Origin: Anaerolineales bacterium
GTDB taxonomy: Bacteria > Chloroflexota > Anaerolineae > Anaerolineales > UBA11579
Length of the DNA: 64,000 nucleotides
Direction: 5' to 3'
NCBI GenBank assembly: GCA_040902205.1
Contig: JBBDXR010000034.1
Span: forward strand, 2,859-66,858
A program made the translations under genes and the position numbers. A model generated the notes under the pieces. The model saw nothing but the letters and a program-made list of their open reading frames with translations, did no database searches and was not told the origin of the DNA. Below are positions 334 to 58,825 of the stretch, piece after piece. The stretch's first letter is position 1. Every line of letters starts with the position of its first letter.

Positions 334-410
334 TGGGGTGGGTGACGGGACTTGAACCCGCAACCACCGCATCCACAGTGCGGTGCTCTGCCAGTTGAGC
401 TACACCCACC
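334..410 (-). tRNA. tRNA-His (anticodon GTG)
   Basis: The reverse complement folds as a cloverleaf: extra G-1 opposite C73, anticodon loop CTGTGGA, T-loop TTCAAGT, encoded CCA. Confidence 0.9.
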
Positions 411-2674: not shown

Positions 2675-4714
2675 CTAGTTGGATAACAATTCCTTCAAAT
2701 CCCCTTCGGTGTTCACCGGCAGCTGGCACACAAAATTCCTGCACACATAGGCCGTCGGTTTGCCATCCTTGAGCGGCCGGTCAGCCAGCAAGGGCGGGCT
2801 GCCTGCAGGGGGAGGGAAGCCGGACATGGCGACGACATCGAAAGGCCGCCACTGTTTCCAAGTCTCATCAATTAACCTTATGGCGTCCTCTGTCTTGGGA
2901 TTGCCGACAACGGCGATCTCGCGGCCTTCGGCCAATGCGAAGTTCGCTGCGCATAGCCACATGCCAAATGCGGTCGGGTAGCGGCTAGCTGAAGGAAGGA
3001 TGATGGCGAGCATGCTCTCGGCCAGGTGGCGATGTTGGGCGCTGCCGCTGTACGTCGCAAGCTGCAAGAGACCCATGGCGGCCAGGGCGTTACCGCTAGG
3101 CGTGGCGTTATCCTGCTGATCCTTAGGGCGGGAGATCAGCGTTTCGTGGTCGTCGCGGGTATCGAAGAAGCCGCCCGCCGGGTCGCGGAAGTGGGCCAGC
3201 ATTTCGGCCGCCAGGCGCTCGGCTTCGGCATACCAACGCACGTCGGGTGCAGACTGGTAAAGGGCGAGCAGGCCAAGAATGAGGGCGGCGTAATCCTCCA
3301 GGTAGGCATTGTGCTCGGCGCGGCCGGACCGCCAGGAGCGCAGCAGGCGGTCACCCGGATGCAGCTCGCGCAACAAGAAGGCGGCATTGCGGCTGGCGAT
3401 GGCGGTGTAGTCCGGGCGGCGCAGATAGCGGCCGGCTTCCGCAAAAGCCAGCAGCATGAGCGCGTTCCATGAAGTGAGCACCTTATCGTCGGTAGCGGGC
3501 CGCACACGGCGGCCGCGGGCAGCCAGCAAGGCCGCCGCGGCCGAGGACAAGCGAGCCTTCACGGTTGCCGGATCACTATTGAACTCGCCGGCAAGCTCCT
3601 CATCCGATCTGGCGCGCTGCAGGATGCTGCCGTCTTCGAAGTTACCTTCTTTGGTTATCCCATATGCGGCTACGAATGAATCTCTAATCTCGTTATCTCC
3701 AATCTCGGCCTCTACCTCCTCCAGCGACCATACGTAGAACTTGCCCTCTTCGCCTTCGGAGTCGGCATCCAGGCTGCTGAGGAAGCCGCCCTGTTCGTTA
3801 CGCAGTTCTCGGGCGACGAAATCCAGGGTGCGCTCGCAGACCTCGCGCAGGGCTTCATCTCTAGTTACTAGATAGCCGTGCAAGTAGGCGCGGGCCAGTT
3901 GGGCGTTGTCGTACAGCATTTTTTCGAAATGCGGAACGAGCCAGAGTTCATCGACGCTGTAGCGGGCAAAGCCGCCGCCGACGACATCGTACATGCCGCC
4001 GCGGGCCATGGCGCGCAGGCAATGCACGGCCATAGCCTGCGCCAGCTTGTCGCCTTGCGTGGCGCGGCCGAGCAGGAAATCGATGGTCATGGGCTGCGGG
4101 AACTTAGGGGCGCCGCCCCAGCCGCCGTGGTTCCAATCGTAGGCCTGGGCCAGGGACATGATTGCGCGATCCAGCGCTTCAGGGTCCGGGCCGCCAGGTT
4201 GGCCGGCAGTGGGTTCGGCATGCTGCAAGTGCTGTTGCAATTGCCGGCCGGCCTCGAAGACCTTATCGCGCTGGCCCGACCACAAGTTGGACGCATGCTC
4301 AAGGATTTGGCGGAAGGAGGGCAGGCGGTGGCGCGGTTCGGGCGGAAAGTATGTGCCGCCCAGGAAGGGCTGGCCATTGGGCGTTAGGAAGACGCTCATG
4401 GGCCAGCCGCCGGAGCCGGTGAGGGCGACGACGGCGTTCATATAGATGCCGTCCAAGTCGGGACGCTCTTCGCGGTCCACCTTAATGTTCACAAAGTGCG
4501 CGTTCATGTAGGCGGCGGTCTCGGTGTCCTCGAAGGATTCGTGGGCCATCACATGGCACCAATGGCAGGCGGCATAGCCGATGCTGAGGAAGATGGGCTT
4601 ATCCTCGGCCACGGCGCGGGCCAGCGCCTGCGGCCCCCAGGGATACCAATCGACCGGGTTGTCCTGGTGTTGCAGCAGATAAGGCGAATTGGATTGGGCG
4701 AGGCGATTGGGCAT
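2675..4714 (-). CDS. thioredoxin-domain protein, DUF255/YyaL family
   Basis: 679-aa ORF. The N-terminus [18 protein letters not shown]...CHWCHVM is typical of DUF255, and the remainder resembles an epimerase-like alpha-toroid. Confidence 0.9.
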
Positions 4715-15308: not shown

Positions 15309-16265
15309 ATGATCCTGGTAACGGGAGGCGCAGGCTTCATCGGCCAACGGCTCGTCCAACGCCTCGTCGACGAAGGCCATAGCGTGCGCATCCTTATCCG
15401 CCCGTCCGCCTCCAGCCCCCGGCTGCCGCAAGGCCTGTCGGTGCAAGCTGCCATCAGCAGCTTGGCTGACCCGCGCGGGTTGCGCGCCGCCCTGGTTGGC
15501 GTCGACGCCATCTACCACCTGGCGGCCGTTGACTGGCTGGATCCCGCCGCTAATTTCCGTGCGACGGAGACCGAAGGCACCCGCAATCTGCTGGATGCCG
15601 CCCAGGATGCCGGAGTCGGTCGCTTCGTGTTTGTGAGCCACCTCGGCGCGGACCGGGCGGCGGCCTTTGCGGCCCTTAAGGCCAAGGGCATCGCTGAAGA
15701 GTTCGTGCGCCAGAGCCCCTTGGCTTTTACCATTCTGCGCTCCGGCCTGGTCTTTGGCCCAAGGGACCACTTCACCACCGGGCTGGCAAAGCTCCTCGCT
15801 TTTGCGCGCGTCTTCGCTTTGCCATTGGATGGGCGAATCCTCATGCAGCCTCTTTGGATCGAAGACTTGGTCTCTTGCCTCACGTGGTGTATGGCTGGGG
15901 AGGAAACGGTGGGACAGACCATTGAAGTGGGTGGCCCGGAGCATATAAGCCTGCGCCGCGTATGTGAAATGATCCGGGACAAAGCGGGCTTGGACACACG
16001 TATGATCTCCGGCCGTCCCTCTTATTTGCGTTTGCTGGTGAGCCTGCTGAAAGCGGTCAAGCCGCGTTTGCCAGTTTCGAATTACTGGCTCGATTATTTT
16101 GCAGCCAACCGTATCTGTGAGTTGGATACGCTGCCGCGCGCGTTCCACTTATTGCCGGCGCGCTTCTCGCAGAAGACCGAATACCTGGCCGGCGTCGATT
16201 GGCGCCAGATCCTGCGCACGGAAATGGCCGCGCCGCTACTGCGGCCAACCTTGCAAATTGAATAG
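15309..16265 (+). CDS. NAD(P)-binding Rossmann protein (NmrA/epimerase-like)
   Basis: 318 aa with the N-terminus MILVTGGAGFIGQRLV. Confidence 0.85.
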   Translation: MILVTGGAGFIGQRLVQRLVDEGHSVRILIRPSASSPRLPQGLSVQAAISSLADPRGLRAALVGVDAIYHLAAVDWLDPAANFRATETEGTRNLLDAAQDAGVGRFVFVSHLGADRAAAFAALKAKGIAEEFVRQSPLAFTILRSGLVFGPRDHFTTGLAKLLAFARVFALPLDGRILMQPLWIEDLVSCLTWCMAGEETVGQTIEVGGPEHISLRRVCEMIRDKAGLDTRMISGRPSYLRLLVSLLKAVKPRLPVSNYWLDYFAANRICELDTLPRAFHLLPARFSQKTEYLAGVDWRQILRTEMAAPLLRPTLQIE

Positions 16266-16976: not shown

Positions 16977-17450
16977 GTGATCAGCATACGTGCGGCGACC
17001 CCGGCTGACTCCGGGGACATTGCCCGCGCCCACGTCGATAGCTGGAGGAGCACCTATAAGGGCTTGATGCCCAGTGAGTTCCTGGTCTCTTTGTCCCCCG
17101 AAAGGCGTTCTGTTCAGTGGAGCGCGGCGCTGGAAAACCCAGATCGCAATTGCATATTTGTTGCTGAGCATAAGGAAGTTGGTCTTGTTGGCTTCGTCGA
17201 TTGCGGGCCTGAGCGCGGGGGATGGAAGGAATATTCAGGGGAGATATATGCCATATACCTGTTAGAAAAGTATCAGGGTAAGGGAATTGGAAGAAGGCTA
17301 TTCAATCAGGCGGTGAAGGAACTGAAACGGCGGAACCATCAGAGCATGCTGCTTTGGGTACTGGTCGATAATCCTTCGCGTGGGTTCTATGAGCATGTGG
17401 GAGGAAAAGAGATAGGTCAAAAAGAAATTGAGATCGGGGGGAAAAGTTAG
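16977..17450 (+). CDS. GNAT family N-acetyltransferase (3' end probably frameshifted, see findings)
   Basis: 157 aa with the GNAT core YQGKGIGRRLF. A conserved-looking C-terminus continues in another frame to 17482. Confidence 0.8.
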   Translation: MISIRAATPADSGDIARAHVDSWRSTYKGLMPSEFLVSLSPERRSVQWSAALENPDRNCIFVAEHKEVGLVGFVDCGPERGGWKEYSGEIYAIYLLEKYQGKGIGRRLFNQAVKELKRRNHQSMLLWVLVDNPSRGFYEHVGGKEIGQKEIEIGGKS

Positions 17451-43153: not shown

Positions 43154-43204
43154 ATTGTTGCGCATGCTAAAATCCCGCGCCATCACCATGCCATCCCCTT
43201 CTTT

Positions 43205-43288
43205 GTCATTCCGAGCGAGGGCGTCTTGCGCCGCCTTTAGCGGCGCAGCCCAGAGCCTGCCCTTGAGCGAAGCGAAGGGAGGAATCCC
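43205..43288. repeat. solo repeat R1 (GTCATTCCGAGC... family) with internal hairpin
   Basis: GTCATTCCGAGCGAGG, the hairpin GCGCCGC-CTTTA-GCGGCGC (43228-43246), then TGAGCGAAGCGAAGGGAGGAATCCC. Related to R2 at 48426-48510. Confidence 0.7.
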
Positions 43289-43345: not shown

Positions 43346-43492
43346 ATGCGCATCCTCGTAACCGGCGCCGCCGGCTTCCTCGGCTCCCATCTCTGCGACC
43401 GCCTCCTGGCCGAAGGCCACGAAGCCTGTCCTGAGCGAAGCGAAGGATCGTCGGCATGGACAGCCGGAAGGCCGCACTGGAGCGCGCGATGA
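43346..43492 (+). pseudogene. relic 5' end of uxs (31 codons) split by a 23-nt repeat insertion; reads as a 48-codon upstream ORF
   Basis: [26 protein letters not shown] | 23-nt insert at 43425-43447 | VVGMD. After the insert, the shifted frame ends in a TGA overlapping the uxs ATG (ATGA at 43489-43492). Confidence 0.8.
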
Positions 43493-44448
43493 GAGTGCTC
43501 GTAACTGGGGCCGCGGGATTTTTAGGTTCCCATCTGTGCGACCGCCTCTTGGCCGAAGGCCATGAGGTCGTCGGCATGGACAACTTCATCACCGGCAAGC
43601 CGGAGAACATCGCCCACCTGGCCGGCAACGAGCGTTTCCGCTTCATCCGCCATGATGTGTCAAATTACATCCACGTCCCCGGCAAACTGGACGCGGTGAT
43701 GCATTTTGCCTCGCCGGCCAGCCCCAACCCGGCGTCGCCCATCGGCTATCCCAATCTGCCCATCCAGACCATGAAGGCCGGCGCGCTTGGCACGCACAAC
43801 AGCCTCGGCGTGGCCTTTGCCAACAAGGCGCGCTTCATGCTCGCCTCTACCTCGGAGATCTACGGCGATCCCCTCGAGCATCCGCAGAAAGAGACCTACT
43901 GGGGCCACGTGGACCCCATTGGCGAGCGCTCCGTCTACGATGAAGCCAAGCGCTTCGCCGAAGCGCTCACCATGGCCTACCATCGCTTCCACGGCGTCAA
44001 CACCTGCATCGTGCGCATCTTCAACACCTACGGCCCCCGCATGCATATCGACGATGGCCGCGCCGTGGCCAACTTCATCCAGCAGGCTTTGCGCGGCGAG
44101 AAACTCACCGTCTACGGCGACGGCCAGCAGACGCGCAGCTTCTGCTACGTGGATGACGAGATCGAAGGCATCTACCGCCTGCTAGTCTCCGACGTGCACG
44201 AACCCGTGAACATCGGCAATCCCACCGAGATCACCATCGAGCAGTTCGCCAAAGAGATCGACTCCCTTGTCGGCAAGAAGGCTGGCCTGGTATACGACAA
44301 GGATCGCATGCTCTCCGGCGACCCGCTGCGCCGCCAGCCGGATATCACGCGGGCGAGCAAGCACCTCGGCTGGGAACCCAAGATCTCGTTGCAAGAAGGG
44401 CTTAAGAAGACCATCCCTTATTTCAAACAGCAGTTGGGGATTGCCTAA
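43489..44448 (+). CDS. uxs: UDP-glucuronate decarboxylase (UDP-xylose synthase)
   Basis: 319 aa, [20 protein letters not shown]... with the YDEAKR catalytic motif, an SDR extended-family member. Confidence 0.9.
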
Positions 44449-44449
44449 T

Positions 44450-44893
44450 CCGTCATTGCGAGGAGCCGTGTTGCCGTAGGCAACTAAGGCGACGTGGCAA
44501 TCTGATAGCCCCTTGACCTGGTACCGTGGTCAAAGAAATAGAGGCCTGCGTCTACATCCTGACCAACTGGAAACATACAGTCCTGTATACTGGAGTAACG
44601 AGTGACTTGGCTCGAAGGATGGAAGAACATTGAAGTAAAACTGGAAGCGCATTCGCAAAGCACTACAATCTAAACACGTTGGTTTTGTGGAGGTTACTGA
44701 GAGATTCGAGGATGCAATTGCCCGTGAGAAACAGATCAAATCTTGGGCGAGGTGGAGAAAGAACGAATTGATAAGTAGCGTCAATCCTGACTGGAAAGAC
44801 CTGTACGATGAATATTTTGATTAAGCGAGTTGCATTTTCCTTCGTAGGTTCAGATTGCCACGTCGCTCCCTTGCTGTGGCAATCTCCGAGACC
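44450..44893. mobile_element. decayed copy (E1) of the GIY-YIG/inverted-repeat unit
   Basis: The left end CCGTCATTGCGAGGAG plus hairpin GTTGCC-GTA-GGCAAC matches the E2 end. There is a perfect 17-bp inverted repeat, GCGACGTGGCAATCTGA (44489-44505) and its complement (44850-44866). The outer right repeat is degenerate. Confidence 0.6.
44526..44824 (+). pseudogene. GIY-YIG nuclease pseudogene
   Basis: Homologous to the 47469-47777 product (ACVYILTNWKHTVLYTGVT...EKQIKSW...NPDWKDLYDEYF). It has an in-frame TGA at 44631 and a 1-nt deletion in the T-run at 44683-44686. Confidence 0.8.
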
Positions 44894-44905: not shown

Positions 44906-45361
44906 ATGAGCCTAATTAATAGTCGCAAAGAGCAAAAAAGGTTCGTGAAATTCGCCATCGTCGGCGCCATCGGCACCCTCGTCGACTACAGCGTCTTCAA
45001 TCTCGTCGCCTTCCTCTTCGGCGTCGAGGAGCTCTACGCCCAGGGCATCAGCTTCCTGGCCGCCGTCGCCTCCAATTTCATCCTCAACCGCAACTGGACC
45101 TTCCGCGACTCGCGCACCAAGCACGTGCGCGTGCAGCTCGCCCAGTACGTGCTGGTCAACGCCATCGGCCTCCTCATCCGCACCCCCATCTTTGCCTTCC
45201 TTGGCGGCCTGTTTGGCAATATGCTGGCCGGCTTCCAGGTGCCCTTCGGGCTGACTGCACACTGGCTGGCCCACAACCTGGCCCTTGCGGGGGCTATTGG
45301 GGTCGTTTTACTTTGGAACTACTTCGTTAACAGGCGCTGGACATTCGGCGACGTCAAGTAG
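44906..45361 (+). CDS. GtrA-family membrane protein
   Basis: 151 aa with KFAIVGAIGTLVDYSVFN and C-terminal LLWNYFVNRRWTF. Confidence 0.85.
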   Translation: MSLINSRKEQKRFVKFAIVGAIGTLVDYSVFNLVAFLFGVEELYAQGISFLAAVASNFILNRNWTFRDSRTKHVRVQLAQYVLVNAIGLLIRTPIFAFLGGLFGNMLAGFQVPFGLTAHWLAHNLALAGAIGVVLLWNYFVNRRWTFGDVK

Positions 45362-45431: not shown

Positions 45432-45497
45432 ATCGGCGTGGTGCTGCTATGGAACTACTTCGTCAATCGTAGGTGGACGTTCGGGGATGTGGAGTAG
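45432..45497 (+). pseudogene. relic 3' end of a diverged gtrA allele (21 codons plus stop)
   Basis: Encodes IGVVLLWNYFVNRRWTFGDVE*, against IGVVLLWNYFVNRRWTFGDVK* at the end of the functional gene 70 nt upstream. Confidence 0.8.
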
Positions 45498-47390: not shown

Positions 47391-47397
47391 TCTTCCA

Positions 47398-47851
47398 CCG
47401 TCATTGCGAGGAAGGCCGAATGTAAATGAGGCCGACGAAGCAATCCGTGCGCTGCTTAAAGGGCTAAGATGCGGAGAGACCAAGACGCCTGTGTGTACAT
47501 CCTTACGAACTGGAAACATACCGCTTTCTATACTGGTGTAACCAATGACCTGCAGCGACGAATAGAACAGCACAAAACCAAGGGAGGAGGTCAATTCACA
47601 AGAAAGTACAACCTTACTAAACTTGTATTTGTGGAAGTTACAGAGCGAATCGAAGATGCCATTGCTGGGGAAAAACAGATAAAGGGAGGTTCGCGTCAAG
47701 ACAAAATCGACCTAATAAATAAAATGAACCCCGAATGGAATGATCTCTACGATGAGTACTTCGCAATCAGTGAATGACTTGTCTGCTCGAATAGAATGGA
47801 CTAGATTGCTTCGTCGGCGTTGCCTTGGCAACGCACTCCTCGCAATGACGG
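47398..47851. mobile_element. compact GIY-YIG unit (E2) bounded by nested perfect inverted repeats
   Basis: Outer inverted repeat: CCGTCATTGCGAGGA (47398-47412) and TCCTCGCAATGACGG (47837-47851). Inner inverted repeat: GCCGACGAAGCAATC (47431-47445) and GATTGCTTCGTCGGC (47804-47818). Hairpin: GCGTTGCC-TT-GGCAACGC (47817-47834). Confidence 0.65.
47469..47777 (+). CDS. GIY-YIG nuclease family protein (small, stand-alone)
   Basis: 102 aa with VYILTN...FYTGVTNDLQRRIEQH...AIAGEKQIKG, the GIY-YIG core. Lower GC than the flanking genes. Confidence 0.85.
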   Translation: MRRDQDACVYILTNWKHTAFYTGVTNDLQRRIEQHKTKGGGQFTRKYNLTKLVFVEVTERIEDAIAGEKQIKGGSRQDKIDLINKMNPEWNDLYDEYFAISE

Positions 47852-47858
47852 TGCGGCC

Positions 47859-48422
47859 TTGAAGCCCCTTCGCGTCGTCGCCGGCTTCGCTCGCGGCCTG
47901 CATCTGCGCTCCGTCCCCGGCGATAAAACCCGCCCCATCACCGACCGCGCCAAAGAATCATTGTTCAACATCTTGCGCCCGTTTTTACAGGGCGCCGCTT
48001 TCCTGGATCTCTTCGCCGGCACTGGCGCCGTCGGCATCGAAGCCCTAAGCCAGGGGGCTGCCTTCGTTCGCTTCATCGATAACCAGCGCGTCGCCGTGGA
48101 GACCATCAGCGCCAACCTGGCGGTCACCAAGTTAGGGGAGGGAGCTCACGTTCTGCAAACCGACGCCTTTGCGCACCTGGCGGGCAAACCCGACCGCACC
48201 TTCGATTACGTCTTCATCGCTCCACCGCAATACCACGGCCTTTGGAAGCAGGCGCTCCTGGCGCTGGATGCAAATCCGGGCTGGCTGGTAGCGGACGCCT
48301 GGGTCATCGTCCAGCTCGACCCCAGCGAATACGAACAACTCGTCCTCGCCAACCTCGACGAATTCGACCAGCGGAAATATGGCAAGGTGTTGCTTGTCTT
48401 CTTTGAAAGGAGAGCTTCTTAA
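47859..48422 (+). CDS. rsmD: 16S rRNA (guanine966-N2)-methyltransferase RsmD
   Basis: LRVVAGFARGLHL...RPITDRAKESLFNIL...FLDLFAGTGAVGIEALSQGA. There is no ATG, so I propose TTG at 47859. The ORF upstream of that is translated repeat sequence. Confidence 0.85.
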   Translation: MKPLRVVAGFARGLHLRSVPGDKTRPITDRAKESLFNILRPFLQGAAFLDLFAGTGAVGIEALSQGAAFVRFIDNQRVAVETISANLAVTKLGEGAHVLQTDAFAHLAGKPDRTFDYVFIAPPQYHGLWKQALLALDANPGWLVADAWVIVQLDPSEYEQLVLANLDEFDQRKYGKVLLVFFERRAS

Positions 48423-48425
48423 TTT

Positions 48426-48510
48426 GTCATTCCGAGCAGGCGCCGTCCTGAGCGAAGGCGAAGGAGCGCCTAGCGCTGCCTTTAGCGGCGCTGCCCGACG
48501 AGGAATTCAC
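48426..48510. repeat. solo repeat R2 (GTCATTCCGAGC... family) with internal hairpins
   Basis: GTCATTCCGAGCAGG, the core GTCCTGAGCGAAGGCGAAGGA, the hairpin AGCGCTGC-CTTTA-GCGGCGCT, then CGACGAGGAATTCAC. Starts 4 nt after the rsmD stop. Confidence 0.7.
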
Positions 48511-58780: not shown

Positions 58781-58782
58781 AA

Positions 58783-58825
58783 AACGCAATAGGCAGCCGC
58801 GCTTATCGGCTGCCTATTGCGTTTT
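58783..58825. terminator. 17-bp-stem terminator between convergent genes
   Basis: AACGCAATAGGCAGCCG-CGCTTAT-CGGCTGCCTATTGCGTT followed by TTT, preceded by an A-run. Confidence 0.8.

Follow-up and report, generated by a model that had tools for sequence, protein, structure and literature searches.

A probable SRM-ssn-SRM cassette with a divergent repeat architecture in an Anaerolineales genome

Introduction

What is a small nuclease gene, enclosed by perfect inverted repeats and accompanied by no transposase, doing between two host genes? The question is raised by a stretch of 64,000 nucleotides from a metagenome-assembled genome of an Anaerolineales bacterium (Chloroflexota; GCA_040902205.1, contig JBBDXR010000034.1, positions 2,859 to 66,858 of the forward strand), which we refer to as the window and in whose coordinates positions are given. 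An open reading frame (ORF) for a GIY-YIG nuclease is located there between the genes for a 4HBT thioesterase and for RsmD (Cons_hypoth95). A preliminary description made from the sequence had proposed a mobile-element candidate of about 450 bp. Our reading, to which we assign a probability of approximately 0.82, is that the locus is an SRM-ssn-SRM cassette, that is, a gene for an Ssn-family GIY-YIG protein of about 100 amino acids (aa) between two inverted copies of its cognate hairpin repeat (SRM). The enzyme and the repeat family were already described in 2025, and the cassette is not a new kind of element. New here are a divergent repeat architecture that is missed by the published search pattern, comparative evidence for mobility, and a bridge to the CGTC-tagged repetitive extragenic palindromes (REPs).

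The Ssn family of site-specific single-stranded DNA (ssDNA) endonucleases is founded on SsnA of Neisseria meningitidis, a 94-aa single-domain GIY-YIG protein (CDD cd10448) (Chenal et al. 2025, Nat Commun 16:2388, PMC11893778). SsnA binds the NTS hairpin CGTCATTCCCGCGMAVGCGGGAATCYRG as ssDNA only and in one orientation only, and cuts a few nucleotides upstream; cleavage requires the 3 nt before the stem, binding requires the C after it, and RNA is not bound (PMC11893778). Mutation of Y6, Y17 or E64 abolishes cleavage. Three further homologs each cut their own repeats and, like SsnA, are active on ssDNA only, with no activity on double-stranded DNA (PMC11893778). In Neisseria, transformation by NTS-bearing DNA is about 5-fold lower with SsnA. 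SRMs are found near 71% of the homolog genes, in 42% on both sides; the authors likened the NTS-ssnA-NTS arrangement to an insertion sequence and proposed domestication (PMC11893778).

Anatomy of the cassette

The cassette spans positions 47396-47853 (+), including a perfect terminal inverted repeat of 17 nt (47396-47412 / 47837-47853, CACCGTCATTGCGAGGA), and entirely fills the gap between the thioesterase stop (47390) and the rsmD start (47859). Its left hairpin unit (47399-47445, +), assigned by its sequence and inverted-repeat arms as a divergent SRM or CGTC-tagged REP, consists of the tag CGTC (47399-47402), the stem arm ATTGC (47403-47407), GA and a variable insert, followed by GAA (47437-47439), the stem arm GCAAT (47440-47444) and C (47445). 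The right unit (47804-47850, -), assigned in the same way, is an inverted copy of the left unit, with a distinct hairpin as insert (GCGTTGC-CTTG-GCAACGC, 47817-47834) that folds with a 7-bp stem and is the GC hairpin named in the preliminary description. The inner inverted repeat (47431-47445 / 47804-47818) is perfect over 15 nt. Of the earlier account of two nested, concentric repeats, the perfection of both pairs stands, the outer one being longer than first given; the concentric arrangement does not, as the pairs are, by their sequence, the two conserved arms of a single hairpin unit of about 47 nt, one unit per end, in inverted orientation. Only four times in the window do perfectly inverted arms of 15 nt or more lie within 600 nt of each other, and three of these four repeats flank the ssn-like gene or its decayed copy (see below); Markov-1 random sequences contain a mean of 0.06 such repeats per window.

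The remaining points of the first account of the cassette are borne out. The unit fills the intergenic gap, and its GC content is visibly lower than that of the neighbouring genes (0.40 versus 0.62-0.66). The Pfam match of RsmD begins at residue 4 counted from the start at 47859, in agreement with the start of the ortholog in a close relative (L084, see below); the apparent N-terminal extension MPWQRTPRNDG is therefore translated repeat. Peptide artefacts of this type are mentioned in the preliminary description for hypothetical proteins of many phyla, and we find them in mis-called N- and C-terminal extensions of P0008, P0034 and P0050 (here and below, P numbers denote homologous proteins and L numbers the loci considered).

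The encoded protein

The ssn-like gene (47469-47777, +) is an intact ORF of 102 codons whose product matches a sole domain, the Pfam GIY-YIG family PF01541 (E = 4e-14); an alternative GTG start at 47493 yields the 94-aa form called by NCBI (P0001). In BLASTP comparison the protein is 41% identical over 88 aa (E = 2e-21) to the 94-aa SsnA ortholog of N. gonorrhoeae, and its residues Y10, Y21 and E68 align with the catalytic Y6, Y17 and E64 of SsnA. The same three residues, together with R30, R31 and N87, are invariant among 34 homologs. The UPF0213 protein BH0048 is matched in a PDB profile comparison (E = 1e-8) and is 28% identical in the Foldseek alignment; it is thus less close than the SsnA ortholog with its 41%. 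The nearest solved structures to the AlphaFold2 model (pLDDT 83.7) in Foldseek are 1zg2 (UPF0213 BH0048), Slx1 and the N-terminal domain of UvrC, and NCBIfam holds no specific model for the protein. Taken together with the shared size of about 94-102 aa, the single GIY-YIG domain and the retained Y/Y/E residues, the protein is, judged by its sequence, most likely a divergent member of the Ssn family of site-specific ssDNA nucleases.

The family is large, with 518 clusters (50% identity) at E <1e-30 and 9,809 at E <1e-10. Close pairs show purifying selection (dN/dS 0.04-0.39). Over all pairs of homologs, the median proportion of differing sites is 0.26 for nonsynonymous (pN) and 0.90 for synonymous positions (pS), the latter indicating that synonymous sites are saturated. 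Among phages and plasmids, homologs are carried by one phage and by 32 plasmids or chromids on record, none of them reaching 60% identity.

Architecture of the repeat units in related loci

For comparison we considered 80 fetched loci encoding homologs with 50-65% aa identity, whose hosts belong to Chloroflexota, Ignavibacteria, Planctomycetota, Cyanobacteria, Bacteroidota, Patescibacteria, Omnitrophota, Elusimicrobiota, Proteobacteria, Bacillota and others. The 270 units found in these loci share the consensus Y-GTC-ATTGC-GA-(hairpin of 3 to ~60 nt)-GAA-GCAAT-C-(T/C)-C and range in length from 24 to more than 70 nt. The two arms of the outer stem covary: ATTGC/GCAAT is found 255 times, ATTAC/GTAAT nine times, ATTGT/ACAAT four times and ATTCT/AGAAT once, and ATTCC/GGAAT is the stem type of the solo units of the window. 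The position preceding the GTC of the tag is C or T in 90% of the units. The inner hairpin varies between units; of 200 distinct units, 157 have it closed by a G-C pair. Its terminal stem is 2.34 pairs long on average, versus 0.38 in shuffled sequences. Its apical loops are frequently GNA triloops, known as very stable mini-hairpin loops in DNA, and not GNRA or UNCG. Since the thermodynamic folding of single units is weak (z-scores of -0.9 to -2.5), the structure of the unit rests on the comparative evidence.

The exact 11-mer GTCATTGCGAG is found beside homologous genes in more than 12 bacterial phyla. In 44 of 81 loci it is found upstream in sense orientation, at most 250 nt away from the gene, and its reverse complement occurs downstream in 49; the motif is present on both sides in 34 loci and hence, calculated from these three counts, on at least one side in 59 (~73%). 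Motif density is highest at distances of up to 500 nt from the gene. The length of compact cassettes is 363-450 nt, with the start codon 10-25 nt past the left unit and the stop codon often adjoining the GATTGC of the right unit. The preliminary description had spoken of a widespread but poorly described repeat family; the first half of this statement agrees with the distribution over more than 12 phyla, while the second has been overtaken by the characterisation of such elements (PMC11893778, PMC3733652).

No Rfam family matches the units, neither in the whole window, nor in the region at E values up to 10, nor in 20 related loci. A reading of the GAG...CGAA core as a hammerhead or k-turn was also considered and is ruled out by inspection and by the lack of an Rfam match.

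Insertion and mobility

The closest metagenomic relative of the window locus is L084, with RsmD ~78% and thioesterase 82% identical. Its orthologous junction is empty: the stop codon of the thioesterase gene and the start codon of rsmD overlap (aaTTGA), and the cassette is missing. In two further relatives the gap holds a small gene for a rhodanese-like lipoprotein (L082, 2087-2473; L083, 1130-1516), and the thioesterase-rsmD junction therefore has three states among close relatives. As a separate observation, the 8-mer GTCATTGC (encoding R-V-I-A of RsmD) is located about 11 nt downstream of the empty junction (L084, 2503-2510), where the window has GTCGTCGC, which may be coincidental or may point to a preferred target.

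Pairs of related cassettes were compared at other loci. Between L079 and L080 (Dehalococcoidia), an identity of 84% covers exactly the stretch from TGTCATTGCGAG to CTCGCAATGACA, outside of which the two loci are unrelated, L015 and L035 (Planctomycetota) are 89% identical across the cassette only, with unrelated flanks, and the pairs L016/L019 and L020/L037 have only the gene or the cassette in common. In related pairs homology stops at the GTC tags. These comparisons show the cassette to be an insertion in this lineage and the related cassettes to be discrete, tag-delimited blocks in unrelated contexts. The earlier proposal of a discrete inserted unit without a transposase is in line with this, as the GIY-YIG gene is its only ORF and the L084 junction is empty. 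Units also occur without the gene: 42 convergent pairs, 60-250 nt in extent, contain no ORF, compared with 27 pairs that span a gene, and Flavihumibacter soli has at least five ORF-less doublets within 3.7 kb. From the insertion, the discrete blocks, the ORF-less doublets and solo units, and the patchy distribution over many phyla, we infer that the cassette is, or once was, a small element that moves horizontally.

In 77 of 78 loci the GC content of the gene is below that of the flanking sequence. The gene is antisense to both neighbours in none of 61 loci, and the ++ arrangement is found in 38, which suggests that it is expressed when transcription of host operons reads through it. True duplications of host gene ends beside a cassette are found only in L033 (126 nt, 96% identity; 2237-2362 / 2796-2921), L039 (79 nt, 90%; 2815-2893 / 3337-3415) and L045 (55 nt, 85%); in all three, one copy of the gene end stays intact, and the duplications may arise, rarely, when a cassette inserts close to the end of a gene. 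Long direct repeats between the flanks were rejected as a general signature of insertion: they reach at least 40 bits in 21 of 73 loci and in none of the controls, and are mostly arrays of repeat units.

Several homologs are located inside operons. On plasmid p1 of Planktothrix agardhii (L177, 13848-23369), an ssn homolog lies inside a DISARM operon, between an MmeI-type methyltransferase gene and drmA, and is surrounded by units of the ATTCT/AGAAT type and tandem half-units; arrays of the tag motif are located within the annotated MmeI coding sequence (15521-15587 and 17159-17264). Within L162-L176, the gene for the homolog P0032 separates the methylase gene of a restriction-type system from that for its ResIII helicase, and P0099 is found between Metallophos and HerA-like DUF87 genes, next to NurA.

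Decayed second copy and solo units

A second cassette, 44451-44893, lies about 3 kb from the first and is ~70-79% identical to it at the nucleotide level. Its left unit (44451-44502, +) reads CGTCATTGCGAGGA, hairpin GTTGCCGTAGGCAAC, GCGACGTGGCAATC and folds such that an ATTGC/GCAAT stem closes the inner hairpin (z = -2.5). The ssn pseudogene that follows (44524-44824, +; by alignment with the first copy) contains an in-frame TGA and a 1-nt deletion, and yields fragments only, with no ORF spanning the region; its SWARWRK type, shared in the homolog alignment with P0006 and P0011, assigns it to a sub-lineage other than that of the first copy. In the degenerate right end (44850-44893, -), the inner arm TCAGATTGCCACGTCGC pairs perfectly with 44489-44505, and the outer arm is lost or rearranged.

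Two solo composite units are located in the same region. The first (43204-43286, +; TGTC-ATTCC ... GGAAT-C) has inner hairpins including CCCTT-GAGCGAAGCG-AAGGG and folds with z = -4.2. The second (48425-48507, +; TGTC-ATTCC ... GGAAT-T) lies after the rsmD stop, ahead of the next gene, which is convergent; it is missing from the orthologous junction of L084, where rsmD and this next gene overlap. The preliminary description had reported a decayed copy and solo repeats nearby, and both are thus recovered. It had also named what would speak for a fixed structured spacer: no further copies, a constant position in relatives with co-diverging sequence, or no purifying selection on the ORF. None of the three is the case: we find additional copies, an orthologous junction in L084 that lacks the unit, and purifying selection on the ORF.

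Relation to known repeat families

The units share with the published Ssn systems the hairpins flanking the gene, the unpaired (C/T)GTC tag, a stem starting with AT and a C straight after the stem, and in both sets every homolog is flanked by its own type of repeat. Rates of association are alike, ~73% on at least one side and 42% on both sides here, compared with 71% and 42% in the paper. The units differ from published SRMs in their 5-bp stem, the GA/GAA internal loop and the variable inner hairpin of 3-60 nt. The degenerate pattern used for SRM searches, HGTCWYN(0-2)YYVSBRHN(0-5)WNVSBRGN(0-2)RNCYNB, which is a search heuristic of that paper and not a definition, has no match in the window or in any of the 80 related loci; in positive controls it yields 9 (Neisseria), 4 (Azospirillum) and 1 (Sinorhizobium) matches at the respective loci. 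The units considered here therefore constitute a divergent class. Moreover, repeats number a few per 64 kb here, whereas published Ssn hosts carry hundreds per genome; the present host is an Anaerolineales, whereas Chloroflexi are absent from the main text of PMC11893778; and an insertion-sequence-like origin is only a hypothesis in that paper, whereas an empty site and transfers of discrete blocks are documented here.

A second family of relatives are the CGTC-tagged REPs, which include dRS3 of Neisseria and RPE-4/6 of Rickettsia (Di Nocera, De Gregorio, Rocco 2013, BMC Genomics 14:522, PMC3733652). They have an unpaired CGTC, TGTC or CCTC tag and stems opening with A-T, T-A, and form mostly inverted dimers; no gene was found associated with them, and the authors concluded that they have no dedicated transposase (PMC3733652). 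The tag at one end, the stem beginning A-T then T-A, the short 3' tail, the inverted dimers and occasional intragenic copies are all shared with the units described here, which carry the tag, an ATTGC stem and a C-(T/C)-C tail. CGTC-tagged REPs, however, have a continuous stem of 8-9 bp with a loop of 4-5 nt and occur mainly in alpha-proteobacteria, whereas the present units are interrupted and variable in length. By tblastn, homologs of the window protein are found in typical hosts of CGTC-tagged REPs, and in all four host loci fetched (N. gonorrhoeae, Azospirillum lipoferum, Sinorhizobium meliloti and Novosphingobium aromaticivorans) the homolog is flanked by the CGTC repeats of its own host. 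The gene is positioned between sufB and sufC in A. lipoferum and between gltA and lpxB in S. meliloti. In the latter (L181, record labelled pSymB, ~880-1480), the C-terminus of a second ssn-like gene, ending in KLNPDWRDLYFQLW and a stop codon, lies directly upstream of the annotated one, so that two cassettes are apparently in tandem between gltA and lpxB.

Two other known systems invite comparison. REP/REPIN-RAYT systems, reportedly described by Nunvar in 2010 and by Bertels and Rainey in 2011, likewise place a small nuclease-type gene between inverted hairpin repeats, recognise an ssDNA hairpin with a conserved unpaired tag, have repeat doublets as miniature non-autonomous forms and are inherited in part vertically. 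RAYT, however, is an HUH Y1 transposase with a covalent intermediate that can rejoin DNA, and its tag is GTAG, as opposed to a hydrolytic GIY-YIG enzyme and a GTC tag here; no HUH Y1 transposase of the REPIN-RAYT or IS200-IS605 type is encoded in the cassette, whose only ORF is the GIY-YIG gene. The free-standing GIY-YIG homing endonucleases I-TevI and the T4 Seg proteins share the catalytic fold, the intergenic insertion between conserved genes and a selfish-gene flavour. Their C-terminal DNA-binding modules, their double-stranded homing site and their occurrence mainly in phages and introns have no counterpart here, where the protein has no extra DNA-binding domain and contexts differ in every lineage.

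Proposed mechanism and alternative explanations

By homology with SsnA and the three homologs, the protein would bind the folded repeat only in ssDNA and only in one orientation, reading the GTC tag left unpaired on the 5' side of the stem and the C that immediately follows the stem, and would cut a few nucleotides upstream of the tag, just outside it. The cut position predicted in this way falls within a few nucleotides of the point at which related cassettes cease to be homologous. The inverted arrangement of the two units gives either strand of the cassette a single recognisable unit, located at the 5' boundary of that strand. Movement would then proceed by an ssDNA route or by host recombination during transformation, and not by double-strand-break homing. 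A hydrolytic GIY-YIG enzyme cannot rejoin DNA, as is established for the fold, nor can it perform strand transfer, so that host replication or repair, or ssDNA uptake in transformation together with recombination, must contribute. The nuclease would also cut incoming or exposed repeat-bearing ssDNA in the cell, as in Neisseria, where transformation drops. A further step would be to regard SRM-ssn-SRM cassettes as autonomous ssDNA transposons whose sole protein is the hydrolytic nuclease, with host enzymes doing the joining and with doublets and solo units as miniature derivatives; we offer this as a tentative idea, which we consider possible but doubtful.

Several observations weigh against a mobile SRM-ssn-SRM cassette. 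As the enzyme is unable to rejoin DNA, it is no self-sufficient transposase, and as the published SRM pattern does not match the units, target recognition could differ. Recent jumps are not visible: identical proteins always occur in the same context (P0032 on 20 contigs, P0099 on 6), and in a set of 5.8 billion proteins the one closest to the first copy reaches 75% identity. Vertical inheritance is seen for some cassettes (Nostoc L038/L042/L059; L027/L051). No target-site duplication was found, short candidates at offsets of 0-2 being no better than in shuffled pairings, and the small number of units in the window gives no support for a genome-wide role of the repeat.

Part of this evidence would also fit a domesticated host system, in which the gene acts as a resident device for ssDNA restriction or control of recombination and the flanking units only regulate or mark it. 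The ~5-fold effect of SsnA on Neisseria transformation and the domestication proposed by its authors (PMC11893778), the purifying selection, the vertical inheritance in Nostoc and in L027/L051, the lack of recent jumps and the probable expression from host operons, the gene being antisense to both neighbours in none of 61 loci, are all in its favour. We nevertheless consider it unlikely as a full account, given the empty orthologous junction of L084, the discrete blocks in unrelated contexts, the decayed copy of another sub-lineage 3 kb away, a GC content of 0.40 within a genome of 0.63, the patchy cross-phylum distribution at 50-65% identity, and a number of units in 64 kb that is too low for control across the whole genome. 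The domestication view and the mobile-element view are compatible and do not exclude each other. Far less probable is a free-standing homing endonuclease that cuts the empty double-stranded allele and is copied in by double-strand-break repair, the route that the preliminary description had suggested if the nuclease were to provide mobility. The fold itself, a sub-threshold NCBIfam match to a group I intron endonuclease (E = 0.004, 17 bits versus a cut-off of 56), the intergenic position that leaves neighbouring genes undisrupted and the rare long duplications of host gene ends (L033, L039, L045) could be taken to indicate homing, but the protein has no DNA-binding domain beyond its catalytic core of ~95 aa, SsnA and its homologs are inactive on double-stranded DNA (PMC11893778), the mutually unrelated contexts of insertion imply no conserved homing site, and the family is nearly absent from phages, with a single record.

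The repeats might instead act as RNA, as structured untranslated regions, processing sites or transcript stabilisers, with the inverted arms looping out the ORF. While the cassette is co-oriented with its neighbours and probably co-transcribed, and the arms could pair as RNA duplexes of 17 and 15 bp, the two ends are reverse complements of each other and would give different RNA structures, the apical loops are often GNA triloops of the DNA mini-hairpin type and not GNRA or UNCG, neither the window nor 20 related loci contain an Rfam match to the units, and SsnA does not bind RNA (PMC11893778). We give this explanation very little weight. A structured spacer, fixed or due to chance, in which the ORF would be fortuitous, has nothing in its favour outside this one locus and is already refuted by the repeat statistics (0.06 expected per window), by the conservation of GTCATTGCGAG beside homologs across phyla and by the 9,809 clusters of the family at E <1e-10. 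An SRM-ssn-SRM cassette thus remains the explanation that we favour.

Other features of the window

Further duplications are located around the decayed cassette. A fragment of the N-terminus of an epimerase gene (77 nt; 43346-43422 versus 43489-43565, 81% identity) occurs just upstream of the full gene for an NAD-dependent epimerase/decarboxylase (43456-44448), with a small hairpin of the CCTGAGCGAAGCGAAGG ("PERSEGS") type between the two copies. The final 66 nt of a GtrA-like ORF (44906-45361), positions 45296-45361, recur 136 nt downstream at 45432-45497 with 73% identity, and the stretch that separates the copies contains two short GC hairpins (GCCCGG-CGAA-GCCGGGC and GCGTTGC-GTA-GCAACGC). 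The GC content of this GtrA repeat block is host-like, and GC content gives no support to a wholesale import of the block of epimerase, pseudogene and GtrA, which was considered and rejected. The only other long perfect inverted repeat of the window is a 19-nt hairpin with a 7-nt loop at 58781-58825 (AAAACGCAATAGGCAGCCG / CGGCTGCCTATTGCGTTTT), unrelated to the units, and the sole Rfam match in the window is a tRNA gene at 337-409 (-).

Implications

Proteins commonly annotated as "GIY-YIG nuclease family protein" gain a name and, judging from their relationship to SsnA, a probable biochemical activity, and the repeat-derived pseudo-peptides in metagenomic proteins likewise gain a name. A large sub-family (518 clusters at 50% identity, E <1e-30 to the present profile), whose targets have a different architecture, escapes the published SRM pattern; if its enzymes are active, they would provide new specificities for the ssDNA-cutting toolbox proposed in PMC11893778. 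The comparative evidence indicates that cassettes move as discrete units, which is no more than a hypothesis in that paper. Should the cassettes indeed be autonomous ssDNA transposons, the nuclease would be the long-missing mobilising enzyme of the CGTC-tagged REPs, among them dRS3/NTS, RPE-4/6 and the rhizobial mosaic elements, and would account for the repeat-derived peptides found in proteins of many phyla.

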